64,000 nucleotides of DNA, from the NCBI GenBank assembly GCA_018818885.1, contig JAHIRB010000018.1, forward strand, positions 5,041 to 69,040, written 5' to 3'. The translations under genes and the position numbers were made by a program. This DNA comes from Patescibacteria group bacterium (GTDB lineage: Bacteria; Patescibacteriota; Patescibacteriia; Buchananbacterales; SURF-54). The notes under the pieces were generated by a model. The model saw only the letters and a program-made list of their open reading frames with translations. It was not told the DNA's origin and did not search any database. The stretch's first letter is position 1. Every line of letters starts with the position of its first letter. Shown in pieces: positions 8,474-55,985 of the stretch.

Positions 8474-8560
8474 TACAAATTACGAATGAATACGAATATA
8501 CGAATCACATAATAAAATTAGCATTTGTATATTCGTATCTAATTAGTAATTCGTAATTTT
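8474..8560. repeat. palindromic intergenic repeat, copy A (AATTACGAAT...AATACGAATATACGAAT / ATTTGTATATTCGTAT...ATTCGTAATT)
   Basis: Imperfect inverted repeat of about 85 bp. The same arms recur at 29689-29770 and 42812-42898. Confidence 0.6.
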
Positions 8561-9301
8561 ATGAAAAACATAATCAATAAGATGAAACCAAGAATTAAGC
8601 AGATAGTTTCTAGGAGAGATACAAGTTTTTCCTGGCGGATTTTTAAAATTATGGGAGAGTTTGTGACTGGTTTTGAGTTTTTACAGCAATATGGATTAGC
8701 TGCCACATTTTTTGGCACTGCGCGTTGCAGAAAAGAAACCAAAATATACAAAGAAGCAACAAAACTTGCCAAGGAACTTGCTAAAATGGGTTTTGCTATA
8801 ATCACTGGAGGTGGCCCTGGTATTATGGAGGCTGCTAATAAAGGCGCAGTAGAAGCTAAAGGAGATTCAGTGGGTTTAAATATCCAACTCCCAAATGAAC
8901 AACGTATCAATCCGTATGTCAAAGAATCTAGAGCTTTTCACTATTTTTTTACTAGAAAAGTTATGCTTTCATACGCCTCGGAAGTCTATATATTTTTTCC
9001 TGGCGGTTTTGGTACCCTTGACGAGCTTTATGAAATTTTAACTTTAATCCAGACACGAAAAATATGCAAGATTCCAGTTATTCTCGTGGATAAAGATTTT
9101 TGGCAGCCTTTGGTGGAGTGGATGTACGGCAGGCTTTATAGGCAAGATAAAGCAATTGATAAAGAAGATTTAAATTTGTTTAAGGTTGTTGATAATGCAG
9201 ACGAGGCTTTAAAATTAATTAAAAAAGTAATTAAGAGCAAGAAGCTGGTTGCTTCCGAAACCCCAATTGAATACGTTGCTGGTGAAAAAATTCAAAAATA
9301 A
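8561..9301 (+). CDS. LOG-family (TIGR00730) Rossmann-fold nucleotide-binding protein
   Basis: ITGGGPGIMEAANKGA and PGGFGTLDE motifs of cytokinin riboside 5'-monophosphate phosphoribohydrolase-like proteins. Confidence 0.75.
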   Translation: MKNIINKMKPRIKQIVSRRDTSFSWRIFKIMGEFVTGFEFLQQYGLAATFFGTARCRKETKIYKEATKLAKELAKMGFAIITGGGPGIMEAANKGAVEAKGDSVGLNIQLPNEQRINPYVKESRAFHYFFTRKVMLSYASEVYIFFPGGFGTLDELYEILTLIQTRKICKIPVILVDKDFWQPLVEWMYGRLYRQDKAIDKEDLNLFKVVDNADEALKLIKKVIKSKKLVASETPIEYVAGEKIQK

Positions 9302-9302
9302 A

Positions 9303-10613
9303 ATGCCAAATATAGAATTCAATTACAAAAACATCAGCTTTATCAAAGAGGATAAAATAAAAAATTCTGCAGAAAGTTTAAAGACCTATGTAGACCATCT
9401 TAAAATTGTTGCAGAGGCAAACAACTATGAATCAGACGAAGCTTCTATTTTTGCACCTTTTGATTTAGCTGCACAAAAAGAAATAAAGAGTGCGGTAGAA
9501 CAAACAAGTAGCAATATTTTAAAATATATTATTGTAGTAGGAATTGGCGGTTCAAACTTAGGTACTAAAGCAGTTTACGAAGCATTATTTGGAAATTTAG
9601 ATTCATTAAAAAAGAGACAACCTAAAATAATTTTTATAGATACAGTTGCTCCAAGTTTAATGGCAAATGTAAAATTAATTTTGGATGAAATTAAAACCAC
9701 AGAAGAAGTATTAATAAATCTCATCACAAAATCAGGCACTAATACCGAACCGATAGTTAACTTTGAGGGATTATATGCTTATCTGATAAAGCGTTTTCCA
9801 AACATTAACGAAAGAATAGTAGTTACAACAAGCGGTGGGACAAAACTATGGCAAAAATCTCATGAACTGGGTCTTACTATTTTAGACCACCCTACAGTTG
9901 GTGGCAGATATTCAGTTTTCACAGCTGTTGGTTTATTTCCGTTAGCTGTTGTTGGTGTTAATATTAATTCTTTACTAAAGGGTGCACAAGAAATGAGAGA
10001 TTTATGCATATCGTCGGACTTTGATGAAAATGTTGCATTGATTTCTGCAGTTTTGATACATCAACATTATCAAAAAGGCAAAAATATTTTAAACAACTTC
10101 TTTTTTAATCCAGAGCTTGAATCAGTCGGCAAGTGGTATCGCCAACTCATAGGTGAAAGTATTGGTAAAGAAAAAGATACGCGTGGAAACGAAGTCAACG
10201 CAGGCATCACACCCATTGTTTCCATTGGTTCAACAGATCTTCATTCCATGGCGCAACTATATTTAGGTGGACCAGATGATAAATTTACAAATTTTGTATA
10301 TGCTACAGACAAATCAGAGGCAGCTGTTCCAACACAGCAACTATTTCCAGGAGTAGTTGAAGGCCTAGAGGGTAAAGATTTAAAAATAATAATGAACGCA
10401 ATAATAGAGGGAGTTAAAAAAGCCTATTACAAAAAACAAATACCATACATGGAAATAAATATGCCAGAAATTTCTGCTTATACAATAGGACAATTTTTAC
10501 AGTTTAAGATGATGGAGATGATGTATTTGGCTAAGTTGATGGGAGTAAATGCATTCGATCAACCTAATGTAGAAGAATACAAAGAAGAGACTAGAAAACT
10601 CCTTGAATCTTAG
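9303..10613 (+). CDS. pgi: glucose-6-phosphate isomerase
   Basis: VVGIGGSNLGTKAV (SIS domain) and GGRYSVFTAVG motifs. Start set at ATG 9303, immediately after the LOG stop. Confidence 0.85.
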   Translation: MPNIEFNYKNISFIKEDKIKNSAESLKTYVDHLKIVAEANNYESDEASIFAPFDLAAQKEIKSAVEQTSSNILKYIIVVGIGGSNLGTKAVYEALFGNLDSLKKRQPKIIFIDTVAPSLMANVKLILDEIKTTEEVLINLITKSGTNTEPIVNFEGLYAYLIKRFPNINERIVVTTSGGTKLWQKSHELGLTILDHPTVGGRYSVFTAVGLFPLAVVGVNINSLLKGAQEMRDLCISSDFDENVALISAVLIHQHYQKGKNILNNFFFNPELESVGKWYRQLIGESIGKEKDTRGNEVNAGITPIVSIGSTDLHSMAQLYLGGPDDKFTNFVYATDKSEAAVPTQQLFPGVVEGLEGKDLKIIMNAIIEGVKKAYYKKQIPYMEINMPEISAYTIGQFLQFKMMEMMYLAKLMGVNAFDQPNVEEYKEETRKLLES

Positions 10614-10709
10614 CTTTCTTATTTTTACAAATTATTTTTTTAGTTAATGATGGGTATGTACTCATTTTTTTCTTTGATACTTTTGTAACCAAAAGTATCC
10701 AAAAGTTTT

Positions 10710-10783
10710 GGGGTGGCGAAACTCGCACTTGCCTATGGGAAGGTGTGAGTATACTTTCCACGGGCTCGGACAGTCGCCACCCC
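10710..10783. other. tRNA-sized (74 nt) GC-rich structured element with a 10-bp terminal helix GGGGTGGCGA/TCGCCACCCC
   Basis: Closing helix plus internal hairpins (GCGAAACTCGC). No T-loop consensus, so not called as a tRNA. Lies just upstream of the corA promoter. Confidence 0.3.
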
Positions 10784-10811
10784 AAACCCCAGTCTTTCTA
10801 AGATATTCTCT

Positions 10812-10840
10812 TGTCAATATTCCCAAAGTATACTACAATG
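10812..10840 (+). promoter_or_regulatory. sigma70-like promoter TTGTCA-17-TACAAT for corA
   Basis: TTGTCA at 10812-10817, 17-nt spacer, TACAAT at 10835-10840. About 38 nt upstream of the corA ATG. Confidence 0.4.
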
Positions 10841-10877
10841 ATAACGTAAAAAATAAAACAGTTGAGGGTATTTTTTT

Positions 10878-11798
10878 ATGATTAAAATTTATAAGAAGAC
10901 AGTTAAAGAAGCAGAACTAACCGAAGTAAATGATTTTATTTTGGGTTCTTGGGTTAGAGTTGTGGATCCAACCCAAGAAGAAGTTCAATTGTTGGCAGAT
11001 AAAACTGGCATTGCTTTAGATATTTTGGAAGACGCGGTTGATGAAGCAGAGCTACCTCGTATTGAATACGACCAAGGTAACCTCGTAGCTATTATTCGTG
11101 TCCCTGTGTCTAATGGTGATGGTGTTACGTCGATTCCTTTAACAATTATTATCACCAATAGATACATCGTTACGATTAGTATCAAATCTAATGAAATTAT
11201 TAAATTGTTTTTAGAAAATAAAATTGAATGCTTTACAACACAGAAGTCCAAATTTTTATTAAAGATTTTAGATCAAACTAATCGTTCATACGACAAATTG
11301 ATCAAAGGGATTTCAAAAAATATTAGTAGACAAAAATACAAGCTTGATAGTTTAAAAAATAAAGATATTTTTAATTTAGTACAACAAGAAGAAGTTTTGA
11401 ATAATTTTATTTCTTCCTTGGTTCCCAATTCCAATGTTTTTGATAGAATTTTAAAGGGAAAATATTTAAAATTATACGAACAAGACGAAGAATTAGTAGA
11501 AGATTTACTTATTGATGTACGACAGGTTATTGATCTATGTAACACCAACATCAAAACTATTAAAAACGTTCGTGAAGCATACCAAACTATACTTTCGAAC
11601 AACTTAAATAAGTTATTGAAGTTTTTGACATCAATTACCATAATCTTGACTTTGCCGACAATAATTGCTAGTATCTACGGAATGAATGTTGAGCTGCCAG
11701 GCGGCGGATCTCATTTTGCATTTTATTATATAGCGGGATTTACTATTATTGTTATGGCAGCAGCCTACGCAATATTTAATTGGAAAAAGTGGTTGTAA
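10878..11798 (+). CDS. corA: CorA-family Mg2+/Co2+ transporter
   Basis: 306 aa, a cytoplasmic domain then two C-terminal TM helices with YGMNV (GMN motif). Second CorA paralog in the window. Confidence 0.85.
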   Translation: MIKIYKKTVKEAELTEVNDFILGSWVRVVDPTQEEVQLLADKTGIALDILEDAVDEAELPRIEYDQGNLVAIIRVPVSNGDGVTSIPLTIIITNRYIVTISIKSNEIIKLFLENKIECFTTQKSKFLLKILDQTNRSYDKLIKGISKNISRQKYKLDSLKNKDIFNLVQQEEVLNNFISSLVPNSNVFDRILKGKYLKLYEQDEELVEDLLIDVRQVIDLCNTNIKTIKNVREAYQTILSNNLNKLLKFLTSITIILTLPTIIASIYGMNVELPGGGSHFAFYYIAGFTIIVMAAAYAIFNWKKWL

Positions 11799-11804
11799 TT
11801 TAAA

Positions 11805-12251
11805 ATGATAAATATGAAGAAATTTTTTGTCCTATCAGGATTAGTTTTAATTTTAATCACCGGGTGTAAACAAAACACGTCAATAAATATTATTGAGCAG
11901 GTTTGTTTAAAAAATTATTGTTTTTATGTAGAGCTGGCTCAGACTTCAGAAGAAAGATCGCAAGGGTTGATGTATAGAACAGAGTTAGGTCAAAACAAAG
12001 GAATGTTGTTTGTTTATCCAGACGAGGCAATAAGAAGTTTTTGGATGAAAAATACAAAGATCCCATTGGATATAATTTTTATCGATAATAATAAGCGAGT
12101 AGTTAGCATAAGTAAGGATACGCAGCCATGTATAGAGGATCCATGCCCCAGTTATAAGTCTGCCGATAAGGCACAATACGTTTTGGAAATAAATGGTGGA
12201 ATGTCAGACCAGATAGGATTGAAAGTTGGATCAATATTACAATTTAGATAA
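11805..12251 (+). CDS. DUF192-domain lipoprotein
   Basis: Signal peptide plus a lipobox-like LITGC, and ERSQGLMYR...GMLFVY...WMKNTKIPLDIIFID, which match the DUF192 consensus. Confidence 0.55.
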   Translation: MINMKKFFVLSGLVLILITGCKQNTSINIIEQVCLKNYCFYVELAQTSEERSQGLMYRTELGQNKGMLFVYPDEAIRSFWMKNTKIPLDIIFIDNNKRVVSISKDTQPCIEDPCPSYKSADKAQYVLEINGGMSDQIGLKVGSILQFR

Positions 12252-12254
12252 TTT

Positions 12255-12340
12255 GCGGGTATAGTGGTTTATTGTCACTCTCAGCCGCAGAGAGCGGGTA
12301 TAGTATAATGGCTTATTATGTCAGCCTTCCAAGCTGAAGA
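12255..12340 (+). pseudogene. two truncated 5' copies of tRNA-Gly (through the D-arm and through the anticodon arm)
   Basis: GCGGGTATAGTGGTTTATT... and GCGGGTATAGTATAATGGCTTATTATGTCAGCCTTCCAAGCTGAAG match the downstream tRNA-Gly up to the anticodon stem, then diverge. No T-arm. Confidence 0.45.
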
Positions 12341-12380
12341 TTAAACAATTAAAAAATAATATTTTCATCGTGTATTAAGA

Positions 12381-12453
12381 GCGGGTGTCGTATAGTGGTT
12401 TATTATGTCAGCCTTCCAAGCTGAAGAGGGCGGTTCGATTCCGCTCACCCGCT
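12381..12453 (+). tRNA. tRNA-Gly (anticodon TCC)
   Basis: Acceptor GCGGGTG/CACCCGC, anticodon arm TCAGC-CTTCCAA-GCTGA, T-arm GGCGG-TTCGATT-CCGCT. The flanks extend the acceptor helix to 14 bp (ATTAAGAGCGGGTG...CACCCGCTCTTAAT). Folded by hand. Confidence 0.75.
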
Positions 12454-12542
12454 CTTAATACGGGATTTTGGATTCCCGCCTGCCCCGTAAACGACTCTGA
12501 GTTTATCGAATAGAGTTTTACGGGGTTACCCGCTCCATGATA

Positions 12543-12568
12543 AAAGCCCCTTAAAACGGGGCTTTTGT
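12543..12568 (+). terminator. intrinsic terminator AAGCCCC-TTAAAAC-GGGGCTTTT
   Basis: 7-bp GC stem plus a T-run. Preceded by a longer hairpin CCCCGTAAA...TTTACGGGG at 12484-12526. Confidence 0.5.
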
Positions 12569-12595
12569 GATAGACTGGTAAAGCAAGTTAGAATT

Positions 12596-13321
12596 TTATT
12601 TAATATTATTCCAAAGATGCTGAATCATTGTTTTGTGCGTATCAGCAATATCTTTATCTTCAATAATCACACCCATTAGGTTATTTAAAGAAACCATAGT
12701 TGTTTTGTTATCAAATACTAAGATATCTGTAGCTATCTTAAAACTACGAGGTAAAAACTTAGTTTCACTTAGTCCCGTTCTGTATTTTTTTTGTGCATAT
12801 TCTCTGGCTTTTTTACTTTCCTGCATTAAATCATAAATAATACCTCCCTGACGATTCAAGATATTAAATAGATGTCTGTTTTCTTTCTCTGTAAAAACAT
12901 CAGAATAATTATCAAATGAAAACATAGACCAAATTTCTTTTGATCTAAAGACTTCCTCATACATTTTAGTAAGTCTATCTTTGCCTTCATAAAATCTTAC
13001 TTTAGGTTGTTTTGAGCTTTTTTGGTATATAGATTCTAAGTCTGGCAGAATATCCTTAATTTTTTCCTTTTTTTCTTCTAAATACTCAATTAGCTTACTG
13101 GGCTTTTCAGCTTTATAGTGTGTAATAGTCCCAGAGGGAATAGATATTAAAAGATTCTTTTTTAATAATTCTTCAATAATAAGATAAGTGGTGGGTCTTT
13201 TTAGACCCGCCCTTTTTGATAATTGGGTGATAGAGCATGTGCCTAAGGTTAAAGCAGCCAAATAAACGTTGGTTTCCTTATCGTTTAAGCCAAATTGTTG
13301 AAGGATAGTTTCTTTTTCCAT
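12596..13321 (-). CDS. TrmB-family transcriptional regulator (paralog 1)
   Basis: N-terminal winged HTH (NVYLAALTLGTCSITQLSKRAGLKRPTTYLIIEELLKKNLL) typical of TrmB. 241 aa. Confidence 0.7.
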   Translation of the reverse strand: MEKETILQQFGLNDKETNVYLAALTLGTCSITQLSKRAGLKRPTTYLIIEELLKKNLLISIPSGTITHYKAEKPSKLIEYLEEKKEKIKDILPDLESIYQKSSKQPKVRFYEGKDRLTKMYEEVFRSKEIWSMFSFDNYSDVFTEKENRHLFNILNRQGGIIYDLMQESKKAREYAQKKYRTGLSETKFLPRSFKIATDILVFDNKTTMVSLNNLMGVIIEDKDIADTHKTMIQHLWNNIK

Positions 13322-13472: not shown

Positions 13473-13880
13473 ATGGGTGAGATAATTTTAACAGAAGGCG
13501 AAGAAAACTGTGTAAACAATATAGTTGGCGAGCTATTCTTTCATGTCCGAAAGGGTACGCTCACACACGGTATGGGAAAGGGGGTATTTCAGAGAAACTG
13601 TATTCATGAGATAGACTGCCACTGGTCAGATCGGGGGTGTATCGACATCAGTATGAGCGAATACGTCAGCGAGATTAACACCAACATGCTTTTAATCTTG
13701 TTTGCAGTTGTAAACAAGATTACTGCAAAACACTCAGTGCATGTTAGCCTTAGTTTTCCTTCTTGGGAAGAACTAAATGCTAACAGGTCACAACCTCCAC
13801 CACCAGATACTTTCTGGATGGAAGCGCTTGCCAGTCAGGGAGAGCCTGAACAGGTAACGGAGGAAGATTGGAAGGAATAA
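13473..13880 (+). CDS. Cys/His-rich small protein (SD-bearing small-ORF class), divergent from TrmB paralog 1
   Basis: 135 aa. GAGGT SD. Cys/His cluster (C13, H24, H32, C43, H45, C49, H50, C56). GC-richer than its surroundings. Own terminator at 13911-13948. Confidence 0.45.
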   Translation: MGEIILTEGEENCVNNIVGELFFHVRKGTLTHGMGKGVFQRNCIHEIDCHWSDRGCIDISMSEYVSEINTNMLLILFAVVNKITAKHSVHVSLSFPSWEELNANRSQPPPPDTFWMEALASQGEPEQVTEEDWKE

Positions 13881-13910
13881 AAAGAATATGTTTCTTTAAG
13901 GGAGGTGATA

Positions 13911-13948
13911 TAGAGACTCATTAAGTATTATAATGGGTCTCTTTTTTA
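13911..13948 (+). terminator. intrinsic terminator AGAGACTCATTAAGTATTATAATGGGTCTCT plus T7
   Basis: GAGAC/GTCTC stem followed by TTTTTTATTTT. Confidence 0.5.
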
Positions 13949-13979
13949 TTTTAGAATTTATGCACAAACTTAATCTTAA

Positions 13980-14007
13980 TTCATCACCACAGTTCTAATA
14001 TCATTGA
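13980..14007 (+). repeat. 28-bp direct repeat copy 1 (CAGTTCTAATATCATTGACTAACCCGCT)
   Basis: Copy 1 of four near-identical copies downstream of consecutive plus-strand ORFs. Ends in ACCCGCT, identical to the tRNA-Gly 3' acceptor core. Confidence 0.6.
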
Positions 14008-14089
14008 CTAACCCGCTTGGCGAAAAGCTGTCCCTACAGGACGGTTTTTTGCTTACACTGAGTTTGCCGAAGTGGTATACTGAAAGTGT

Positions 14090-14485: not shown

Positions 14486-14516
14486 TCCTTCAAAATTTAT
14501 ATAGTATTTGATATGA

Positions 14517-14544
14517 CAGTTCTAACATCATTGACTAACCCGCT
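14517..14544 (+). repeat. 28-bp direct repeat copy 2 (CAGTTCTAACATCATTGACTAACCCGCT)
   Basis: 27/28 identical to copy 1. Followed by the terminator CACTCCC-CTAAA-GGGAGTG-TTTTT. Confidence 0.6.
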
Positions 14545-14592
14545 CCAGCATTAGCACTCCCCTAAAGGGAGTGTTTTTGATATAATTTTAAT

Positions 14593-15978
14593 ATGAATTT
14601 AATATTACTAAGTTTGGCTGTAATCGTCATTCTTTATTTCACAATTAACCCTTCAAAGAAATGGAAAGTGGCTTTTAATATGGCCACTGTTTCCATTGCA
14701 GCTTTAATTGTTTTATTATTGTTGAAAGTTATTGATATCGAAACAATCATTTCTGGCATCATCGGCACTAATGGAATTGAGCCTTGGAAGGTTTTAGTTA
14801 TATTTTTTAGCGTTGCTTACGTAAGCGTGAGTACAGATGTAACTGGTATTTTTGATTATATAGCATATAGGTTAGTAAGATTAGCAAACGGTGACGGTAT
14901 TAAGCTTTTTTTGTTTTTTTATTGCTTTGCAGGATTCTTAAGTATATTTACTTCTAATGATATTGTTATTTTAACTTTGACTCCGATCATTTTTTATTTA
15001 GGCAAACATGCAAAGATAAATATTATTCCATTATTGTTTGCGGAGTTTTTTGCTGCCAACACCCTTAGTATGCTGTTGTATATTGATAATCCTACAAACA
15101 TTATAATGGTTAATGCGCTAGGGATCGGGTTTGTAGAATATTTGTCAGTCATGTGGCTTCCAACCTTGGTTGCAGCAATTGTTAACTATATATTGTTATA
15201 TTTAATATTTAGAAAACAAATAACTAAAAAATATAATTTAAATGAGAATTCTGAGTTTACAGTAAGAAATAAATTAGACGCCACAATAAGCAGTACATTG
15301 ATGATCGCAATGTTTATTTTTTTAGTATTATCAGACAGTATGGAATTTTCTATTTGGAAAATAACATCTATTTTTGCTATGTTGTTTATAATAGAAGATA
15401 TTTTATTTAGTTTATATTATCAAAGAAAATCACGACAATTATCAGCACCACAACTTGATAAACGAGAAGTCGTGTTAGGTATACCGAAAGAAAAAAATGA
15501 ATTTTGGTTAGCAATAAAGCGTGTACCTTGGAAAATATTACCATTTGTAACAGTTTTTTTTATTTTGGTTTATCATTTAAGTCACATAGGTGTTATTGAA
15601 AGTATAAGTGAGTGGTTATCTGCTGGATCAAATTCTCTTCTGTCGAGTATTGGCTTAAATGGTGTGGTAGCTTTCATCAGTGCGAACATAATTAACAATC
15701 AGCCAATGGCAATTTTGTATTCTTATGTATTTACAAATGCAAAATTAACATTACAAGGGATTGAATTGCGGGGGGCAGTTTATGCAGTTATAATTGCTAG
15801 TAATTTAGCTGCAAATTTTACAATAATAGGTGCTTTGGCAGGCCTAATGTGGAAGAAAATATTAAAAGACAAAGGAGTTCAAATATCATATTTTGATTTT
15901 ATAAAAAAAGGTATTGTAATAACGCCGTTGGTTTTTGTAGCAACATTGGCTACACTCTATGTAATACTTCAGTTCTAA
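14593..15978 (+). CDS. ArsB/NhaD-superfamily anion permease (arsenite efflux pump ArsB-like)
   Basis: 461 aa polytopic protein. CFAGFLSIFTSNDIVILTLTPII...AANTLSMLLYIDNPTNIIMVN aligns to ArsB SNDATALLMTPI...AANVGS...PIGHPTNLVMV. Confidence 0.75.
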   Translation: MNLILLSLAVIVILYFTINPSKKWKVAFNMATVSIAALIVLLLLKVIDIETIISGIIGTNGIEPWKVLVIFFSVAYVSVSTDVTGIFDYIAYRLVRLANGDGIKLFLFFYCFAGFLSIFTSNDIVILTLTPIIFYLGKHAKINIIPLLFAEFFAANTLSMLLYIDNPTNIIMVNALGIGFVEYLSVMWLPTLVAAIVNYILLYLIFRKQITKKYNLNENSEFTVRNKLDATISSTLMIAMFIFLVLSDSMEFSIWKITSIFAMLFIIEDILFSLYYQRKSRQLSAPQLDKREVVLGIPKEKNEFWLAIKRVPWKILPFVTVFFILVYHLSHIGVIESISEWLSAGSNSLLSSIGLNGVVAFISANIINNQPMAILYSYVFTNAKLTLQGIELRGAVYAVIIASNLAANFTIIGALAGLMWKKILKDKGVQISYFDFIKKGIVITPLVFVATLATLYVILQF

Positions 15979-15997
15979 TATCATTGACTAACTCGCT
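15970..15997 (+). repeat. 28-bp direct repeat copy 3 (CAGTTCTAATATCATTGACTAACTCGCT)
   Basis: Overlaps the last codons and stop of the permease gene. 27/28 identical to copy 1. Confidence 0.6.
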
Positions 15998-16200
15998 GTT
16001 TGTATTTATTTTCACCTTCCCCTCCTACACTTCTCGTTTCACTCGAAGTTTTGGAGGGCAGGCAAGTTTACCTGCCGAATCCGCCAGAGGCGGAGAAGGC
16101 AGGCTGAAAATATGGGTTCTGCGCCAGGGGCGCACCAGCCTGGCTGGAATTCCTCTTCACACGCTTTTGACTAGATCATCGCCGAAAGGGTGGTTTTTTA
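15998..16200 (+). other. GC-rich multi-hairpin element (candidate structured RNA or decayed GC-rich repeat) ending in a T-run
   Basis: Consecutive short hairpins CCCTCC..GGAGGG, GGCAGG..CCTGCC, CCGCCAGAGGCGG, TGCGCCAGGGGCGCA and CCAGCCTGGCTGG, then GGGTGGTTTTTT. The ORF 15984-16208 called here is probably spurious. Confidence 0.35.
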
Positions 16201-16571: not shown

Positions 16572-16828
16572 AAATAAAGTATCATAAGATATTCACTAAT
16601 AAATTTGGCAAGCTTAAGATAAAAGTACGAGAGAAAGCAAAAGAAAGATTAATAATTTTTTTTGACGATCCATTTAATGAAAGGTTAAATAATCATGCTC
16701 TGCAAGGTAAGTATATAGGATTTCGTAGTATAAATATTAGTGGCGATCTTAGGGCAATATATAAAATGATTAATAATGACACAGTTTTTTTTATTGACTT
16801 GGATACACATAGCAACCTTTATTCTTGA
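16568..16828 (+). CDS. yafQ: type II toxin, YafQ/RelE family mRNA interferase
   Basis: 86 aa. LNNHALQGKYIGFRSINISGDLRAIYKMIN...THSNLY matches the YafQ/RelE core. Confidence 0.75.
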   Translation: MKIKYHKIFTNKFGKLKIKVREKAKERLIIFFDDPFNERLNNHALQGKYIGFRSINISGDLRAIYKMINNDTVFFIDLDTHSNLYS

Positions 16829-16831
16829 TTT

Positions 16832-16859
16832 CAGTTTTAATATCATTGTCTAATTTGCT
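16832..16859 (+). repeat. 28-bp direct repeat copy 4, degenerate (CAGTTTTAATATCATTGTCTAATTTGCT)
   Basis: 22/28 identical to copy 1, immediately after the yafQ stop. Last copy before the PurD-like gene. Confidence 0.5.
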
Positions 16860-16995
16860 TTCTGCGCCTGCATCAAAGATTAGATATTTGACTATTAACA
16901 AACGAATCGCCTACTTAGGTGTTTTTTTGTTTAGTCTGGTATATGCAAACTTTTAAAAACTGCTATAATTATATTGTTTTTACTTATCAACACTT

Positions 16996-28158: not shown

Positions 28159-29688
28159 ATGGATACAATTAATGTTTGGCCTTTCGCGCTAGCGGTGGGC
28201 ATTATAACCGGTTTGATCACTGGTTTTTATTTACGTAAAGTAATTGTAGTAAAAAGAAAAGATTCAATTGAGCGCAAAATTCAAAACATGATTCAAGAAG
28301 CCAAGGCTAAGCAAAAAGAAATTTTGCTTGAGGCTAACGACAAGGCTTTAAAGTTTATAGAAGATGCTAAAGGAGAAATTCGTGCCAGGCAGCAAGATTT
28401 ACAAAGTTCACAAAGAAGATTCGAACAAAGAGAAGGTCTATTTGACCAAAAACTTATTGAGCTTGAATCTAAAAAGCAAGAACTTTTAGATAAAGCAGAA
28501 AAAATAGAGGACATCAAAAAACAAGTAATAAAAATTAAAGAAGAGCAAACTACTAAATTAGAAAAAATTGCAGCTTTAAGCAAAGCAGAAGCTAAGGAAC
28601 TTTTACTTGAAAATGTTGAAAAAGAATCAAAAGAAGATATTTTGCAGCGTATTAAGAAATTAACCCAACAAGGTTCCGAAGAACTTGAACGTAAAGCCAA
28701 AGAAATGCTTTCTACGGTAATTGAGCGTGTTGCTATTTCTCATGCAACAGAAAGTACAGCTACTGTAGTTGATCTACCATCAGACGAAATGAAGGGACGT
28801 ATCATTGGACGTGAAGGAAGAAACATCAAATCATTCGAACAACAAACAGGAGTTGAAATTATCGTAGACGATACCCCCCAAGCCATTACAATTTCTGGCT
28901 TTTCTCCAATTAGACGTCATGTAGCAAAAAAAGCATTAGAGAAATTAATACAAGATGGAAGAATTCACCCAGCAAGAATAGAAGAAACAATAGCAGAAGC
29001 TAAACAAGAAATTGCACTGGCAATCAAAAAAGCAGGTGAAGACGCACTCTACGATGTTGGTGTTACTGGTATTGATCCTAAATTAGTCCAAATTTTAGGT
29101 CGCTTGATGTATCGTACAAGTTACGGACAAAATATCTTGCAGCATTCAATTGAAATTGCGCACCTTTCAACTTTACTGGCAGAACTACTTGGAGCAGATG
29201 TTACATTAGCAAAAAAGGGCGGGCTTTTTCATGACATTGGTAAAGCTGTAGATCACGAAGTTCAAGGCGGTCACCCAGAAATTGGCTATGATATTTTAAA
29301 GAAATTTGATATGCCAGAAGAAGTAGCCTATTGCGCCAAAGGACATCACGAAGATCATCCAAAAACTCTAGAAGCAGTTATAGTTAAGGTAGCAGATGCA
29401 ATTTCTGGTGCACGTCCAGGAGCACGAAAAGATACTTACGAAAACTATTTGCAGCGTTTGGAAGAACTAGAAAAAGTTGCAACTTCGTTTGATGGTGTAG
29501 AAAAATCATATGCTATTCAAGCAGGGCGTGAAATTAGAGTATTTGTAGTGCCAGAGGAAATTGATGATTTAGAAGCAGTAAAGTTAGCACAAAACATTGC
29601 TAAAAAAATTGAAGCAGAATTAAAATATCCAGGTGAAATAAAAGTTAATGTAATACGCGAAAAACGTATCGTGGAGTACGCGAGGTAA
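28159..29688 (+). CDS. rny: ribonuclease Y
   Basis: N-terminal TM, coiled coil, KH domain (GRIIGREGRNIKSFE) and HD domain (HSIEIAHL...FHDIGK). 509 aa. Confidence 0.9.
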   Translation: MDTINVWPFALAVGIITGLITGFYLRKVIVVKRKDSIERKIQNMIQEAKAKQKEILLEANDKALKFIEDAKGEIRARQQDLQSSQRRFEQREGLFDQKLIELESKKQELLDKAEKIEDIKKQVIKIKEEQTTKLEKIAALSKAEAKELLLENVEKESKEDILQRIKKLTQQGSEELERKAKEMLSTVIERVAISHATESTATVVDLPSDEMKGRIIGREGRNIKSFEQQTGVEIIVDDTPQAITISGFSPIRRHVAKKALEKLIQDGRIHPARIEETIAEAKQEIALAIKKAGEDALYDVGVTGIDPKLVQILGRLMYRTSYGQNILQHSIEIAHLSTLLAELLGADVTLAKKGGLFHDIGKAVDHEVQGGHPEIGYDILKKFDMPEEVAYCAKGHHEDHPKTLEAVIVKVADAISGARPGARKDTYENYLQRLEELEKVATSFDGVEKSYAIQAGREIRVFVVPEEIDDLEAVKLAQNIAKKIEAELKYPGEIKVNVIREKRIVEYAR

Positions 29689-29770
29689 ATTACGAATTAC
29701 CAATCAATACGAATATACGAATAGATAATACGTAATTTGTATATTAGTTTAAATTCGTAATTGGTATTAA
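29689..29770. repeat. palindromic intergenic repeat, copy B (AATTACGAATTACCAATCAATACGAATATACGAAT ... ATTTGTATATT...AATTCGTAATTGGTAT)
   Basis: Same arm sequences as copies A and C. Lies between rny and the YmdB-like gene. Confidence 0.6.
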
Positions 29771-34143: not shown

Positions 34144-34410
34144 TTATTTTTTTAATGAATTTTTTATTCTTACTTTTAAGAATTCTCTTTGTTGACCTTT
34201 ATTTTTTATCTCTAACTCACGTTTCCTAGCATCTGTTTTAGAAATATATGCTTCATAGTAAACAAGTGATAATGGCCTTCTGCTTTTAGTTGATTTCACT
34301 TTGCCAGTATTATGATCGACTACTCGTTTTTTAAGATCTCCACTTATACCATAATATAGTTCATTATCCAACTTACTTTTTAAGACATAGAAATAATATA
34401 TATTAAACAT
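34144..34410 (-). CDS. GIY-YIG nuclease-domain protein (YhbQ/UPF0213-like)
   Basis: 88 aa. YYFYVLKSKLDNELYYGISGDLKKRVVDHNTGK..STKSRRPLSLVYYEAY matches the GIY-YIG consensus. Confidence 0.75.
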   Translation of the reverse strand: MFNIYYFYVLKSKLDNELYYGISGDLKKRVVDHNTGKVKSTKSRRPLSLVYYEAYISKTDARKRELEIKNKGQQREFLKVRIKNSLKK

Positions 34411-42159: not shown

Positions 42160-42810
42160 TTAGGTATTAGCCAAAACAAATACTTTCATTTCTTCTGTTG
42201 GTAAATCTTTTTTTGTAATTTTTAATTTTGGCATTTTATCTGTTGAACACACCCCAATTTCTTTACAGAATTTATCAATGGATTCTAAATTTACTTTTAA
42301 TCCCTTCACTTTATAATGCATAGGTATTACTATTCTTGGTTCAATTTGCGAAATTACTTGCGAAGCCTCCTTGGCATTAATGGTATATGTTCCCCCTACA
42401 GGAATCATCAAAATATCTACACTTTTTAATTTTTCAAGCTGGCCATTGGATAGATTATGTCCTAAATCACCAAGATGAACCAAACTCATACCCTCTGCTT
42501 CTATACGATAAATAGTGTTTGTTCCTCTATCTGTTCCTTCCTTTGTGTCGTGATACGAAGGTATGCCGTAAATAAAAACTCCTTTTGCTTCGTATTCGCC
42601 TGGACCAGATACAATAAATGGTTTTTCACCCTCAATTCCTCGAATTGCAGAGATATTATTATGATCTTTGTGGTCGTGTGTAACCAAAACTAAATTAGCA
42701 CCAAAGTGTGGTACTTTTAACCCAATACTATTATCATATGGATCAATAGCTAAGATTGTATTGTTGGTTTGAATCTTAAAACAAGCTTGACCCAACCATG
42801 TGATTTGCAT
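42160..42810 (-). CDS. MBL-fold metallo-hydrolase
   Basis: VTHDHKDH (HxHxDH) and a downstream His/Asp. 216 aa. Confidence 0.75.
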   Translation of the reverse strand: MQITWLGQACFKIQTNNTILAIDPYDNSIGLKVPHFGANLVLVTHDHKDHNNISAIRGIEGEKPFIVSGPGEYEAKGVFIYGIPSYHDTKEGTDRGTNTIYRIEAEGMSLVHLGDLGHNLSNGQLEKLKSVDILMIPVGGTYTINAKEASQVISQIEPRIVIPMHYKVKGLKVNLESIDKFCKEIGVCSTDKMPKLKITKKDLPTEEMKVFVLANT

Positions 42811-42811: not shown

Positions 42812-42898
42812 GGTTACAAATTACGAATTAATACGAATATACGAATAGGCTTAAATTTCGCATTTGTATATTTGTATGTATTCGTAATTCGTACATTC
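42812..42898. repeat. palindromic intergenic repeat, copy C (AAATTACGAATTAATACGAATATACGAAT ... ATTTGTATATTTGTATGTATTCGTAATTCGTA)
   Basis: Same arms as copies A and B. Starts 2 bp upstream of the MBL-hydrolase start codon. Confidence 0.6.
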
Positions 42899-43198
42899 TA
42901 ACGAAAAATTCGGGCTATAAACCCACTACTATTTTAACATATTTTACTCTTTTTTTAAAGACCATTTGTGGGTATTTTGTGGTTAAATAATTGGCTAAAT
43001 TAAGATAAAATAATTAAGATATTTCAGACATTCAAACTAGTCTTTTGCAACTTTTCTTACTTGACATAAATATCATTATACTATAGTATAAAATGTACCT
43101 GTAAATTATAAATTTCATAAGCTAATTAATCCCGCAAAGTGGGAGCTTGGTTCACAGAATTGAATCGGGTTAAAGCAATTTTTTTTATTGCATTATTT

Positions 43199-50803: not shown

Positions 50804-50806
50804 ATA

Positions 50807-51259: not shown

Positions 51260-51281
51260 ATTTAATTATATTTGGTAAATT
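51253..51281 (+). promoter_or_regulatory. candidate promoter TTGACA-17-TAAATT for ORF 51323
   Basis: TTGACA at 51253-51258 (overlapping the tsaE start codon on the other strand), TAAATT at 51276-51281. Confidence 0.3.
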
Positions 51282-51322
51282 ATTGTAATCAGGAGGGGAT
51301 ATAAAACCAAAGGAGGCAACAA

Positions 51323-51619: not shown

Positions 51620-51632
51620 CACTAGAATAATT

Positions 51633-52679
51633 CTAGTTCGGTTCAACTTTGACTTCACTCCACGGGGTGAAATCTTTTTTTAGTATTTTAAAATATGCTG
51701 CTGCAGCAATTATAGCAGCATTATCTGTACAAAGATTAAACGATGGGATCAGCAAGTCAACATTTACATTCTTTTTCATTTCATTGCGAAGTAATTTATT
51801 AGCAGTAACTCCACCGCCTAGTAAAATTGTTTTTACTTTATATTTTGTAGCAGCATCAATAGTTTTTTTAACTAGTACGTCAACTACTGCTTTTTCAAAG
51901 CTAGCAGCTATGCCAGTCTTTTGTTTTACAGACAATTTTTTTAAGCCTCTTACTTTATATAGAACAGAAGTTTTTATCCCAGAAAAGGAAAAGTTGAAGT
52001 CTTTAGAATTAATCATACCGCGCGGAAAATCAAAAGCATCTGGTTTACCCTTTGTCGCCATTTTAGATATCACGGGGCCTCCAGGGTAGCCTAGGTTTAA
52101 TATTTTAGCAACTTTATCAAACGCTTCGCCAGCTGCATCGTCTAAAGTCTGGCCAATGTTTTTAAAACTGAATTTATCTTTCATGTAGATTAGTTCTGTG
52201 TGTCCGCCTGATACGATTAGTCCTATTGACGGGAATTTGATGGGTAGATCGGGCGCCTCTGCCCGATCGTTGCGATGGGACGCAGGGGCCCCTCCCACCC
52301 CACTAGGTAGCCAATTAGCATAAATATGTGCTTTTAAGTGGTTGACTGTTATTAGTGGTTTTTTCCAAACATAAGAAAGTACTTTAGCAGTTTCAGTGCC
52401 AACCAATAACGACGTTATTAAGCCAGGCTTATTGGTCACAGCAATATAATCAATTTTTTTTTGATTAACTTTGGCTTTAATCAAAGCTTGATTTAGAACT
52501 GGTAGCATGTTTTTTAAGTGATTTCTGGCTGCAACTTCTGGCACAATACCACCAAACTTCGCGTGAATCGCGATTTGAGAAGAAACAACATTACTAAGAA
52601 TTTTAAAATTGCCACGGTCAACTTTTATAACCGCGACGGCAGTTTCGTCACATGATGTTTCAATTCCTAAAATAATCAT
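51633..52679 (-). CDS. tsaD: tRNA N6-adenosine threonylcarbamoyltransferase TsaD
   Basis: MIILGIETSCDETAVAV, HxxxH metal motifs, 348 aa. The ATG lies 6 nt after a TATAAT, consistent with a near-leaderless mRNA. Confidence 0.9.
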   Translation of the reverse strand: MIILGIETSCDETAVAVIKVDRGNFKILSNVVSSQIAIHAKFGGIVPEVAARNHLKNMLPVLNQALIKAKVNQKKIDYIAVTNKPGLITSLLVGTETAKVLSYVWKKPLITVNHLKAHIYANWLPSGVGGAPASHRNDRAEAPDLPIKFPSIGLIVSGGHTELIYMKDKFSFKNIGQTLDDAAGEAFDKVAKILNLGYPGGPVISKMATKGKPDAFDFPRGMINSKDFNFSFSGIKTSVLYKVRGLKKLSVKQKTGIAASFEKAVVDVLVKKTIDAATKYKVKTILLGGGVTANKLLRNEMKKNVNVDLLIPSFNLCTDNAAIIAAAAYFKILKKDFTPWSEVKVEPN

Positions 52680-52698
52680 ACAAATGTATTATAGCATA

Positions 52699-52727
52699 TT
52701 GACATTTTCATAAATAACTAGTAAGGT
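52699..52727 (+). promoter_or_regulatory. promoter-like TTGACA-17-TAAGGT upstream of ORF 52762
   Basis: Same hexamers and spacing as 37294-37322. Confidence 0.4.
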
Positions 52728-52761
52728 TTGCATACAAAACTAAAAAGGAGGGGAAAGACTG

Positions 52762-53133
52762 ATGACAAAAGATCGTCGGATATTCGGTACCAAAAAAACA
52801 AAAGTTTTACTGAAGGACGTCAAGAAGGGAGACACAATTGAGATACGAGTGCCTGTAGAAGACACTGAAACTGCTTTTGTCAAACCCGACGACAAGTCCT
52901 ACTGGATTGGCCTGGAGGTGATCACAGTAGTTGAAGGTATGATCAATGCCAAGATTGTCGAACCAGACGAGGTCAAAAGCGGATGCGAAGCCAATGTGTG
53001 GTTTCCAGAAGTTGAAGTAGGTGAACCCCTTAACTTATCTTGGACGCATGAAGTGTCGGAAGATATCGCATTCAGGATTCAGTCTGTCAACGAAATACTG
53101 CTCATTTCATTCAAAGAAGCAAAAGTCGGGTGA
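52762..53133 (+). CDS. small acidic protein of the SD-bearing small-ORF class
   Basis: 123 aa. AAAAAGGAGGGG SD 8 nt upstream. Terminator hairpin GAGGCGC...GCGCCTC at 53151-53186. Confidence 0.45.
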   Translation: MTKDRRIFGTKKTKVLLKDVKKGDTIEIRVPVEDTETAFVKPDDKSYWIGLEVITVVEGMINAKIVEPDEVKSGCEANVWFPEVEVGEPLNLSWTHEVSEDIAFRIQSVNEILLISFKEAKVG

Positions 53134-53150
53134 TTCACCAAAAATTAAGG

Positions 53151-53186
53151 GAGGCGCTTTCATTGCGAATGCGCCTCTTCTCTATT
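53151..53186 (+). terminator. terminator hairpin GAGGCGC-TTTCATTGCGAAT-GCGCCTC plus a T-rich tail
   Basis: 7-bp GC stem followed by TTCTCTATTTG. Confidence 0.4.
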
Positions 53187-53299
53187 TGTCATTTCGACCA
53201 ATGTTTAGTCAAATTCACGTGCGTGGAGAGAATTCTTCCCATGCTCATTGGAAGGTGTGGGATCCTTCGCTATCGCTCAGGATGACAAAAAATTATTGA

Positions 53300-54001
53300 C
53301 TACTTCTTTAAGTAATTTTGCCTTTTCTTTTCTGGAAATTTTTCAATTGCATATCTTAGCATTGTTCGTGGCATTTGTTTGACATGCTTTTTTAAAAAAA
53401 CTTCTTCAATTTTCATGTCACGATTGCCGACTTCGCGAAGCATCCACCCAACTGCTTTGTGGATTAAGTCGTGATCGTCATTAAGTAATATTTTGGATAT
53501 TTTGAGTGTGTCAGAAAAATCATTCTGGCGTATAAAAGCATATGTAGCTAAAATCGAAATTCTTTTTTCCCAGAGATTTTTCGATTTTGCGAGCTTGTAT
53601 AATACTTCGCGTTTTTTATCTAAAAGATAGGTACCCACGATATTTGGCGCAGAAAGATCAACAAGATCCCAATTATTGATGTTCCTTGTATTTTTTAGAT
53701 AGAATTGGAAGATTTTTTTCTTTTGGCTTTCATTAGATTTGTTATATTGAGCAATTAAGATAAAGAGCGCAATTAATCTGTATTCGTGAATTTTTGTAGT
53801 TAGAAGTTTTTGCAGTTCACCTAACGTCAGATTATTATATTTCTTAGAAACTTTTCTTTGGACAGGGACTTTAATACCTAAGAAAATGTCACCTTCTCCG
53901 TATTGACCTTTACCAGTTTTAAAAAAACCTTGTAAAAGTAAAGCTTGTTTTTTGTTTTTTAATTTATCTAATTCTTTTTTTAATTCATTTAACTTCGCCA
54001 T
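53300..54001 (-). CDS. DNA alkylation repair protein (AlkD/AlkC HEAT-repeat family)
   Basis: 233 aa. Overall similarity to DNA_alkylation family proteins. Confidence 0.65.
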   Translation of the reverse strand: MAKLNELKKELDKLKNKKQALLLQGFFKTGKGQYGEGDIFLGIKVPVQRKVSKKYNNLTLGELQKLLTTKIHEYRLIALFILIAQYNKSNESQKKKIFQFYLKNTRNINNWDLVDLSAPNIVGTYLLDKKREVLYKLAKSKNLWEKRISILATYAFIRQNDFSDTLKISKILLNDDHDLIHKAVGWMLREVGNRDMKIEEVFLKKHVKQMPRTMLRYAIEKFPEKKRQNYLKK

Positions 54002-54597
54002 TTCAAATTAATATACTTTTTAAATTTTTCATTTTTCAAATAAAAATATCCCATCATAGAAACAAACCCACCACCTAGCGAATCAACTATTAGATCCCAC
54101 ATAGTATCTACTAAACCTCGCTTTTGCATATTCACACCAAAGAATTGATCCATGGAAAATTCAAAAATTTCCCACAAAGCACCCAAGGCAATAGCAAAAG
54201 AAAAGGCAAACATTGCCACAAATCCCGCACTTAATTTAAGAGGTTTATATTCTTTATTTAAGGAATAAACAAGAGAAAAACCGATCACTCCAATAATTAC
54301 TCCAGAAAGCGTATGCAAAAATAAATCCCACCACCAAAATTTCAAATAAAAATCCAATACTCCACCAAAAAATATTGAAGTGTAAATAAAAAAGACGATC
54401 AAAATTTCAAATTCAGAAGGGTACTGATGTTTTAATCTTTTCGAAAGAATGCTTGGCAGAAACGTCAAAATAAAAGTTATAATTGTTAGTCCAAGGTTTA
54501 ACCAGTCCCCTTTAATAATGGTTATAGTTGCAGCAATCATTAAAAGCAGGCGAAAAAGTATTGAAATCCAGGATTTTAAACTTTTATTATTGAACAT
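53989..54597 (-). CDS. hypothetical polytopic membrane protein
   Basis: 202 aa with 5-6 TM helices. Overlaps the AlkD-like start by 13 nt. Confidence 0.4.
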   Translation of the reverse strand: MFNNKSLKSWISILFRLLLMIAATITIIKGDWLNLGLTIITFILTFLPSILSKRLKHQYPSEFEILIVFFIYTSIFFGGVLDFYLKFWWWDLFLHTLSGVIIGVIGFSLVYSLNKEYKPLKLSAGFVAMFAFSFAIALGALWEIFEFSMDQFFGVNMQKRGLVDTMWDLIVDSLGGGFVSMMGYFYLKNEKFKKYINLKWRS

Positions 54598-54605
54598 AAT
54601 TTATC

Positions 54606-55274
54606 TTATAAATAATCTTTAGGAAAGTTAGTACAAATTGCATCAATACCTTTTTTGATTACTTTATCCCCAATTTTCTTATTTAATATTTTCCAAGCAT
54701 AACATTCCAGTCCAAGTTCATGCGCTTTCTTTATTCTTCTTTTTTTAACTAAGTTGTAACGAAAGCCAATGCTATCTAATGGTATTGATAGCGCAAATTT
54801 CCAGATATTTTTTGAATATTTTCTTATCAAATAACTTACCTTAAGATTCGGGTTGGCTGTTTTGATTTCTTTTATCATATCAATGTCAAAAGAACTCACC
54901 CTAACATCATCTGTTAAATTATTTTTTAGTATTATTTCGTTTACTGGTTTCGCTGTTTTTTTGCCTTTTAATTCAATATATAAATTAATTTTACCTTTAC
55001 ACAAGTCAATTACTTCTTGCAACGTGGGAATTTTCTGACCTTCTTCGCAATTTAGTTTTTTTAGTTCATCAAGAGTCATCCCTGATACATAACCATGGCC
55101 ATCTGTAGTCCTATCAACTTTTTCGTCGTGGATTACAACAACTTCTCCATCTTTGGTTAGGTGAACATCCAATTCTGTGCCATTACAACCCAAATCAATT
55201 GCCTTTTGGAATGAAAGCAAAGTGTTTTCTGGGGCATAACCGCAAGCCCCGCGATGTCCGATAATGAGTGTCAT
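54606..55274 (-). CDS. glycerophosphodiester phosphodiesterase
   Basis: IIGHRGA...ENTLLSF...GTELDVHLTKDGEVVVIHD GDPD motifs. 222 aa. Confidence 0.8.
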   Translation of the reverse strand: MTLIIGHRGACGYAPENTLLSFQKAIDLGCNGTELDVHLTKDGEVVVIHDEKVDRTTDGHGYVSGMTLDELKKLNCEEGQKIPTLQEVIDLCKGKINLYIELKGKKTAKPVNEIILKNNLTDDVRVSSFDIDMIKEIKTANPNLKVSYLIRKYSKNIWKFALSIPLDSIGFRYNLVKKRRIKKAHELGLECYAWKILNKKIGDKVIKKGIDAICTNFPKDYL

Positions 55275-55283
55275 ATTATTTAA

Positions 55284-55472
55284 TTAAAACACAAATAAGT
55301 CATCAATAGTTGTTTTAAGTGCTTTGGCTACATCATGCGCAAGCTGTAGTGAAGGATTATATTTCCCCTTCTCTAAAAATACAATAGTTTCACGCCTCAC
55401 TCCTACTTTACGCGCAAGATCTTCTTGAGTTAAGTTATATTGCTGTCTAAGTTCCTTGATTTTGTTATTCAT
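55284..55472 (-). CDS. XRE-family HTH transcriptional regulator
   Basis: 62 aa. [45 protein letters not shown] Cro/C1-type HTH. Confidence 0.75.
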
Positions 55473-55475
55473 AGA

Positions 55476-55520
55476 TTACAAATTACGTATCAATACAAAT
55501 ATACTAATGACGAATTAGAG
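55476..55520. repeat. degenerate partial copy D of the palindromic repeat family (AAATTACGTATCAATACAAATATACTAAT...GACGAATTAG)
   Basis: Matches the left arm with several substitutions. No clear right arm. Confidence 0.35.
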
Positions 55521-55564
55521 TATAAAATAAATAAATAAATTGTACCTTGGCTCGTTGTACATTG

Positions 55565-55948
55565 TTACTTGTCACAGCGCTTTTGGTAAACCTGAAACGT
55601 TACAATTTTTGTAATCATTATAAAACAAACAATATACAAAAATAATAATCCAATTCTTTTAAATTCTGGATAATTCACGCTAACTGCCATCAGTGTTGCG
55701 CCAATAGTTACTAAAGTAATTGTAACAATGTTGATAGTTGCTAGTGCACCTCTTCCAGCAACTTTGTAATCACGTTCATCCGCAGTAACTTCGTCTACCT
55801 GACGAAATAAATAATAGATTAAAAAGGTTGCCACTATTATTGATATTGGCACAACTACAGAATATCCTTGACTGACAGAAATTCCCATTATAATAGCAAG
55901 TGAGACAATTATAACGATTCTAATTTTTTCAAATGTTTTCTTCTTCAT
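55565..55948 (-). CDS. hypothetical 3-4 TM membrane protein (typical partner of a small XRE regulator)
   Basis: 127 aa, hydrophobic. Confidence 0.4.
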   Translation of the reverse strand: MKKKTFEKIRIVIIVSLAIIMGISVSQGYSVVVPISIIVATFLIYYLFRQVDEVTADERDYKVAGRGALATINIVTITLVTIGATLMAVSVNYPEFKRIGLLFLYIVCFIMITKIVTFQVYQKRCDK

Positions 55949-55954
55949 ATGTTA

Positions 55955-55985
55955 CTAATTAATACAAATATTACGAATTGGATTT
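55955..55985. repeat. degenerate partial copy E of the palindromic repeat family (TAATTAATACAAATATTACGAATTGG)
   Basis: Left-arm-like fragment only. Confidence 0.3.

Follow-up and report, generated by a model that had tools for sequence, protein, structure and literature searches.

The question raised by this locus is what kind of element lies between conserved genes in a 64,000-nt stretch of DNA from a Patescibacteria group bacterium (GenBank assembly GCA_018818885.1, contig JAHIRB010000018.1, positions 5,041 to 69,040 of the forward strand), referred to here as the window. A first-pass annotation had described a family of palindromic intergenic repeats, three full copies and two fragments, and had read it either as a REP/MITE-type element (repetitive extragenic palindrome/miniature inverted-repeat transposable element) or as a conserved terminator or RNA-processing module. 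The window palindromes are probably non-autonomous elements resembling MITEs or REPINs (inverted pairs of REPs), that is, gene-less derivatives of a cassette that carries a GxxExxY-family nuclease gene between arms built of the heptamer TACGAAT. This reading draws on what was observed directly: the anatomy of the arms, their distribution across phyla, their bracketing of an open reading frame (ORF), the covariation of arm word with protein clade, and polymorphism at gene junctions. The earlier REP/MITE idea was partly supported, being right in kind and wrong about the enzyme.

Palindromes and single arms in the window

Three palindromes of 80–90 bp and two single arms were confirmed in the window, far above chance; all five previously described elements were present at the stated positions. 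Each arm is ∼33 nt long and consists of four direct TACGAAT heptamers with a sharp inner edge. This layout replaces the earlier description of the arm as ATTACGAAT-N-core. The arm consensus is CTACGAAT-TACGAAT-nAA-TACGAAT-A-TACGAAT, in its fuller form C-TACGAAT-TACGAAT-n-AA-TACGAAT-A-TACGAAT. The 17-base core AATACGAATATACGAAT occurs in the window three times exactly and three times with ≤3 mismatches (shuffle expectation 0.37), six occurrences that no shuffle equalled, and ATTACGAAT was counted 9 times against an expected 0.86. Arm coordinates were obtained with an ungapped scan using the 33-nt consensus, for which a Markov control gave 0 matches at ≤9 mismatches. With their four heptamers per arm, the window palindromes conform to the arm type that we propose for the family, an inverted pair in which each arm consists of 3–4 direct copies of a 7–9-nt word.

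The flanking genes had been named as tal/LOG, rny/ymdB and MBL-hydrolase/rpsA, and Pfam agrees, giving TAL/LOG, RNase Y/YmdB and metallo-β-lactamase (MBL)-fold hydrolase/S1 protein. The left arm of copy 1 (8473..8505, plus strand; four TACGAAT-type heptamers, 2 mismatches to the 33-nt consensus) begins on the final base of the transaldolase stop codon (ORF 7517-8473). Its right arm (8523..8563, minus strand; scan start 8523/8531) reads ATTTGTA-ATTCGTA-...-ATTCGTAAT, carries an indel relative to the consensus, and overlaps the LOG gene ATG at 8561 with its outer end. At copy 2 the RNase Y stop codon (29686-29688) directly precedes the left arm (29690..29722, plus strand; 2 mismatches), and the ymdB ATG (29793) lies 26 nt downstream of the right arm (29735..29767, minus strand; 6 mismatches). 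Copy 3 separates divergent genes: the outer end of its left arm (42814..42846, plus strand; 2 mismatches) is separated by 3 nt from the minus-strand MBL-fold hydrolase gene (start codon at 42810), and its right arm (42862..42894, minus strand; 4 mismatches) is directed at the S1 (rpsA-like) gene, for which the longest ORF begins at 43139, ∼240 nt away. The MBL strand has a promoter-like site upstream of copy 3 (minus strand 42905-42959), TTTAAA-17-TAAAAT with a TG, followed in order by a small GC stem with a T-run, the palindrome and the MBL start; this order could be an attenuator-like arrangement or chance.

The two remaining elements had been described as degenerate left-arm fragments flanking a membrane-protein gene. 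They do exist, and are better described as solo arms in the same orientation, each abutting the start codon of a minus-strand gene. One (55476..55515, plus strand, left-arm orientation; 33-nt scan match 55476-55508 with 5 mismatches) has no partner arm, and its outer end comes within 3 nt of a 62-aa XRE-family helix-turn-helix (HTH) gene (55284-55472, minus strand; start codon at 55472). The other (55953..55985, plus strand) is degenerate, with >12 mismatches in the ungapped 33-nt scan, and is visible only as a cluster of three TACGAAT-like words; its outer end is ∼4 nt from the start codon (55948) of a minus-strand DUF2178 membrane-protein gene (55565-55948). Apart from these, the arm scan found no copy in the window, nor in the other 15 kb of the 79-kb source contig (G+C content ∼34%).

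The arm family in Patescibacteria and Bacteroidota

Genomes, one per species, were scanned for exact matches to the 20-base core AATNAATACGAATATACGAAT, and at least 117 stretches matched. Among the matches listed, record titles assign ∼46 to Patescibacteria (many classes), ∼62 to Bacteroidota, 4 to unclassified organisms and a few to others, and all but one of the matched genomes are metagenome-assembled. The outer heptamers, which lie outside the search pattern, are also conserved across loci. The 33-mer arm was found 188 times at ≤9 mismatches in 902 kb of loci (Markov control, 0). The arms form 28 inward-facing pairs (loops of −8 to 50 nt), 12 direct tandems and 0 outward-facing pairs. By the strict 33-nt scan 132 arms are solo and 56 paired, the solo count being an upper bound because an ungapped scan misses partner arms that carry indels. 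The very many copies in other genomes bear out a dispersed, multi-copy palindrome of the REP/MITE kind as opposed to chance AT-rich similarity.

At the gathering score, Rfam identified only tRNAs in the window and no family matching the palindromes; at an E-value threshold, the elements of six other loci gave only sub-threshold microRNA-hairpin noise. A full-text literature search for the motif strings returned no paper. Word searches returned a REP paper (PMC3733652) and papers on rRNA insertions in the candidate phyla radiation (CPR), the latter without mention of such elements. The palindrome and cassette family, which matches no Rfam family and no paper describing it, looks undescribed.

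Inverted arms bracket a GxxExxY nuclease gene

In loci L092, L102 and L110 the arms are 370–490 nt apart and enclose a GxxExxY ORF. Ten GxxExxY genes were found in the pattern-derived loci, and TACGAAT arms enclose 9/10 of them; the ORFs of two further proteins, P0121 and P0175, lie between such inverted arms as well. The cassette layout is compact. The inner end of the left arm touches or overlaps the ATG of the ORF, the stop codon is followed by the right arm, and the next host ATG comes 4–10 nt past the outer end of the right arm. The cassette is co-oriented with the downstream host gene and occupies the exact space from one host stop codon to the next start codon.

The enclosed ORF has 100–150 codons, typically encoding ∼125 aa, and scores 83–121 bits against TIGR04256 (cut-off 35) and 88–119 bits against PF13366 (PDDEXK_3; cut-off 22). 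An AlphaFold model has a pLDDT of 93, and the best Foldseek folds are Cas4, lambda exonuclease, Hjc resolvase and tRNA-splicing endonuclease. E35 of the GxxExxY motif and the residues D74, E84 and K86 of a D...ExK pattern are invariant in 46 sequences. The product is thus predicted, from fold and conserved residues, to be a minimal PD-(D/E)XK nuclease; a sequence search of the PDB found no solved relative. Among the best 150 family representatives, proteins of ∼265 aa with two tandem GxxExxY domains (for example P0256, P0258 and P0263) are common.

The GxxExxY family comprises 18,050 clusters at 50% identity (E ≤ 1e-3). PF13366 is listed as functionally uncharacterized and as having moved between divisions multiple times (PMC3424549). 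The searchable literature mentions the name GxxExxY rarely and does not address its biology. PHROGs contained nothing for GxxExxY and PADLOC gave only faint Cas4-like matches, and GxxExxY is not among the known defence or phage families. Viral contigs contained no GxxExxY relative and no exact motif, so a phage vector is unsupported.

Arm words and protein clades

GxxExxY genes found independently of the motif also lie between co-directional host genes, and most have word-array arms or an adjacent palindrome. The words differ. In a Saccharibacteria locus (L044) the word CTGAT, repeated four times, forms inverted arms of 38 nt that are 82% complementary; in Bernardetia the word is CACAGAGA (28 nt, 86%), in Bacteroides finegoldii, between radA and the next gene, CACAGAGGA (30 nt, 90%), and in Sphingomonas, between fabD and fabG, CGCGAAG (25 nt, 92%). 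Two Gemmatirosa genes, with the words CGCGGAT and CGCAGAGGA, each have a word palindrome immediately downstream of the ORF.

Proteins of the main TACGAAT group share 36–67% identity, mostly ≥42%, across phyla, and the group includes a truly Bacteroidota locus in which type IX secretion system (T9SS) proteins are present. L077 and L052, which have TACGAAT/TACAAAT arms, form a separate pair, 57% identical to each other and 28–42% to the main group. TACGAAT-flanked proteins are 18–36% identical to those flanked by other words, with a single exception at 41% (L052 versus the Treponema copy). The pair with the word CACAGAG(G)A encodes proteins that are 55% identical, and identity between the Bacteroides copy and the Gemmatirosa copy beside the CGCAGAGGA palindrome is 49%. 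The arm word follows protein clade, not host phylum. Because protein identity tracks the arm word, arms and ORF have probably been inherited and transferred as one unit.

L126, a related CPR contig, has further palindromes in operon spacers at 9957-9992, 13849-13939 and 14641-14720. Its rny/ymdB spacer contains a GC-rich hairpin, GTAGGGAC...GTCCCTAC, and two palindromes of other tandem words (ATCCAAAT; TACATTG) lie next to rnc and nusB. The L126 palindromes suggest further word-array families.

Presence and absence at the same junction

Insertion polymorphism had been proposed as a check, and relatives do differ in presence or absence of the element at the same junction. At rny/ymdB, where the window has a palindrome, three relatives differ: the gap is 7 nt in one with 71% YmdB identity, one with 68% identity has a variant of AACGAAT/ATTCGTT words, and one with 59% identity has an unrelated GC-rich hairpin. 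A scan of metagenome contigs for YmdB relatives returned just 3 distant loci.

All three states were found at rfbD/rfbB: an empty site, a palindrome alone and the full cassette. In L155 the two genes are 2 nt apart. L156, whose RfbB protein is identical to that of L155 and whose flanks differ at one of ∼150 aligned bases, has ∼97 extra nt that hold an ORF-less ACGAAT/CCGAAT palindrome. When L156 455-580 is compared with L155 2440-2520, the palindrome replaces the last rfbD codons and the called RfbD protein ends in arm-encoded residues (...IHYPLMIRIRYPKAFR). Full cassettes occupy this junction in L092, L127-L136 and L159. Nuclease ORFs also lie between the conserved neighbours fabD/fabG, radA/next gene and rpsG/fusA, in addition to rfbD/rfbB, the last being empty in L155.

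Position of the arms relative to start codons

The arms are polar with respect to host genes. An ATG opening an ORF of ≥60 aa lies 0–14 nt beyond the outer (CTAC/GTAG) end of 56/188 arms, with a peak at 4–7 nt, and beyond the inner end of 6/188; ∼10 arms touch a start codon with the inner end instead. The genes behind the arms are unrelated housekeeping genes, including tuf, fusA, rpoA, ychF, rplB and pyrG. In L076 a solo arm is situated between a promoter-like TTGACG-17-TATTGT and the fusA ATG, where it would therefore be part of the leader.

A Shine-Dalgarno core (GGAG/GAGG/AGGA, 4–20 nt upstream of the start) precedes 7/57 long ORFs in the window, which indicates that Shine-Dalgarno sites are little used in this Patescibacteria genome. 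Insertion immediately before a start codon may be tolerated for that reason. The idea that the arm replaces a Shine-Dalgarno sequence was dropped, since so few window genes have the core anyway.

Alternative explanations

The palindromes might instead be a host RNA module, transcribed stem-loops that act in the processing, stabilization or termination of polycistronic mRNAs, for instance as sites for RNase III at tal/LOG and rny/ymdB, with the nuclease link secondary. The predicted RNA folds of copies 1, 2 and 3 have energies of −23.9, −16.7 and −31.1 kcal/mol (z = −4.5, −2.0 and −6.8), so the folding check that had been suggested gave good stems in two of the three copies. The palindromes occupy the spacers of co-directional genes, the rny/ymdB junction of a relative carries an unrelated hairpin, and C-to-T changes in the right arm (ATTTGTA) would form G-U pairs in plus-strand RNA, all of which fit such a module. 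Against the module, solo arms exceed paired arms in the strict scan, in which the solo count is an upper bound, the linkers between heptamers are mostly non-complementary, single-side changes yield 106 mismatches versus 39 wobbles, and it is sequence, not pairing, that is conserved across phyla. Arm loops vary freely in length. Compensatory changes between arms number 37 versus 6.6 expected under independence; they fall almost wholly in the outer heptamer and for that reason were not read as RNA covariation. The close relative manages with a 7-nt gap, and no Rfam family matches. As for the terminator reading of the first-pass annotation, the stems are AU-rich, lack a G+C-rich stretch and a U-tract, have no T-run beyond them, and 0/3 palindromes were called by a terminator scan; that reading is not supported. 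Conserved heptamers, non-complementary linkers and common solo arms favour sequence-specific recognition of the words over a role for structure alone, and we regard the RNA module as unlikely. That the elements are classical REPs, REPINs or derivatives of the insertion sequences IS200/IS605, moved by a Y1 (HUH) transposase, is very improbable. They are palindromic, extragenic and multi-copy, and many copies, not all, end in CTAC...GTAG, recalling the GTAG head of REPs (PMC3733652). The unit is nevertheless a 33-nt array of direct heptamers, not a 20–40-nt GTAG-headed palindrome, and the bracketed gene encodes a PD-(D/E)XK nuclease. The TnpA-REP or IS200/IS605 enzyme that had been anticipated was not seen: tblastn (E ≤ 1) with two approximate Y1-type queries, a weak test, found no Y1-like ORF in ∼0.9 Mb of loci.

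An expression module or operator is likewise improbable. Here the arm would be a promoter-proximal or 5′-leader element, or a regulator array bound for instance by the adjacent XRE protein, and the palindromes would be bidirectional versions of it. The start-codon polarity, the fusA leader arm of L076 and the solo arm that precedes the XRE regulator gene are what such a module predicts. Against it, the downstream genes follow no regulon logic, some arms abut the start codon by the inner end, and the arms bracket the nuclease ORF in opposite sense. The arm has no consistent −35/−10 inside it, promoter-like matches being at chance level, and its presence varies between near-identical strains (L155/L156). 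The scarcity of Shine-Dalgarno cores is general in the window, so the genes concerned do not stand out by lacking one. Zur/Fur-type boxes (TCGTAAT half-site), NarL heptamers, extracytoplasmic function (ECF) sigma factor −10 motifs and attC sites were set aside because the direct-repeat layout, the variable arm spacing and the gene contexts do not fit them.

A nuclease cassette and its probable gene-less derivatives

According to the cassette reading preferred here, the cassette would be a selfish mobile unit, now or recently, that has been transferred between phyla whole. Its heptamer arrays may be the recognition sites of its nuclease. The ORF-less palindromes would be non-autonomous or deletion derivatives analogous to MITEs and REPINs, and the solo arms further decay products, retained mainly as a leader directly before a host start codon. 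Transcribed palindromes would fold into AU-rich interrupted stems and might be processed, which we regard as a side effect.

Several observations weigh against this account. The 79-kb source contig, the window included, lacks a GxxExxY gene, and on that ground the window copies are classed as gene-less derivatives. A target-site duplication, another suggested check, is lacking: no direct repeat was found at the outer ends of the 28 pairs. The "empty" rfbD/rfbB site of L155 retains a TAGATTACAAA stretch that resembles an arm end, so that the difference between L155 and L156 could be a deletion and not an insertion. The exact proteins P0121 and P0175 each occur in one genomic context only and give no sign of very recent transposition of ORF-bearing copies. 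Solo arms are polar to host start codons (outer end 41, inner end 6), and this polarity could reflect host function, not decay. The Persicobacter GxxExxY gene has no clear arms and the Treponema gene only a 16-nt inverted repeat. On a plasmid of Fusobacteria bacterium ZRK30 (L151 480-1080) there is a 22-nt direct repeat, CAGATTTAATCCGTGTACCTAT, and no inverted word array; the repeat may be a duplicated target or point to a different insertion mode.

More tentatively, GxxExxY cassettes could be a new class of prokaryotic mobile element of ∼0.5 kb, in which the nuclease recognizes the tandem heptamers of its own inverted arms and either excises and propagates the unit or homes into gene-less palindromes, the TACGAAT lineage having spread between Patescibacteria and Bacteroidota. 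In the homing variant the gene-less palindromes would act as landing pads and the ORF would split its own symmetric site. If this possibility is true, it would supply a function for a family of ∼18,000 protein clusters that has none assigned. The location in operon spacers, the clade-specific word arrays and the gene-less palindromes that litter small genomes together provide a testable hypothesis for the target of GxxExxY and raise the possibility that very small mobile elements of a new type exist.

The cassette family would also explain a class of intergenic repeats in metagenome-assembled genomes of CPR bacteria and Bacteroidota. The presence of a near-identical 33-nt non-coding arm in Patescibacteria and Bacteroidota marks horizontal exchange between the two. 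Such repeats probably break assemblies, many GxxExxY contigs being only 0.5–2 kb long, and they yield spurious or altered gene calls, as in the rewritten RfbD C-terminus of L156. Spurious small ORFs made of arm sequence were also seen, for example at L092 44-199.

Other features of the window and source contig

A second repeat family is present in the window. A ∼30-nt direct repeat, CAGTTCTAATATCATTGACTAACCCGCT, at 13972-14018, 14499-14545, 15952-15998 and 16814-16860 closes four consecutive small units, which hold two ORFs with no Pfam match, an ArsB/CitMHS-type transporter and a RelB/YafQ toxin-antitoxin pair. The arrangement resembles an array of gene cassettes that share one end signal.

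The called tRNA-Gly(TCC) gene (12381-12454) has, 87 nt upstream at 12291-12340, a partial copy that is 92% identical to its 5′ part (12378-12427). Neither ARAGORN nor Rfam calls this copy, which could represent a pseudogene or a tRNA gene that has been interrupted. A stand-alone 88-aa GIY-YIG gene (34144-34410, minus strand; Pfam) adjoins a tRNA-Lys/tRNA-Arg pair and may be another small selfish nuclease gene. Past the right end of the window, the source contig (L162 155-3366) has a large serine recombinase followed by an HTH and M78-peptidase (ImmA/IrrE-like) pair near the contig end, which may be an integrated element.

Comparison with known systems

The cassettes share features with several known systems. 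In 23S rRNA intervening sequences RNase III cuts an extended stem, and in some the loop contains an ORF. Like them, the cassettes seem to be horizontally spread, have complementary flanks around an optional small ORF, and are tolerated in essential transcription units; unlike them, they lie in the spacers of mRNA operons and not in rRNA helices, and their ORF belongs to PF13366, not PF05635. Free-standing homing-endonuclease genes, some of which encode PD-(D/E)XK enzymes, are also small nuclease genes of sporadic distribution between normally adjacent genes, as the cassettes are at fabD/fabG, rpsG/fusA and rfbD/rfbB, and the cassette ORF likewise splits a symmetric site whose halves adjoin when the gene is absent. 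Homing enzymes usually have one specific host target sequence and carry no arms along, whereas the cassette has many unrelated insertion sites per genome, all with the same arms.

The window palindromes resemble MITEs in their terminal inverted arms, their intergenic location, their lack of an ORF, and their presence in some strains and absence from others; at 80–100 bp they are within the size of MITEs (<∼300 bp). As with MITEs and their parent insertion sequences, there is an ORF-bearing relative with the same arms, here encoding a predicted nuclease instead of a known transposase. The elements differ from MITEs in the missing target-site duplication and in a full cassette of only ∼0.5 kb.

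The remaining comparison is with REPs and REPINs and their REP-associated tyrosine transposases (RAYTs). In both systems short extragenic repeats occur singly and as inverted pairs, a small enzyme gene is bracketed by inverted copies of the same repeats, gene-less copies far outnumber gene-bearing ones, and the repeat sequence co-varies with the enzyme clade. The window elements are not imperfect palindromes of 20–40 nt headed by GTAG or CGTC, as REPs are. The cassette enzyme is a predicted PD-(D/E)XK nuclease of ∼125 aa in place of an HUH/Y1 transposase, and the cassette arm consists of 3–4 direct words of 7–9 nt in place of a GTAG-headed palindrome. Unlike REP/REPIN-RAYT systems, many gene-bearing cassettes are possible, between the genes of operons, and one cassette word type is found nearly unchanged in two phyla.

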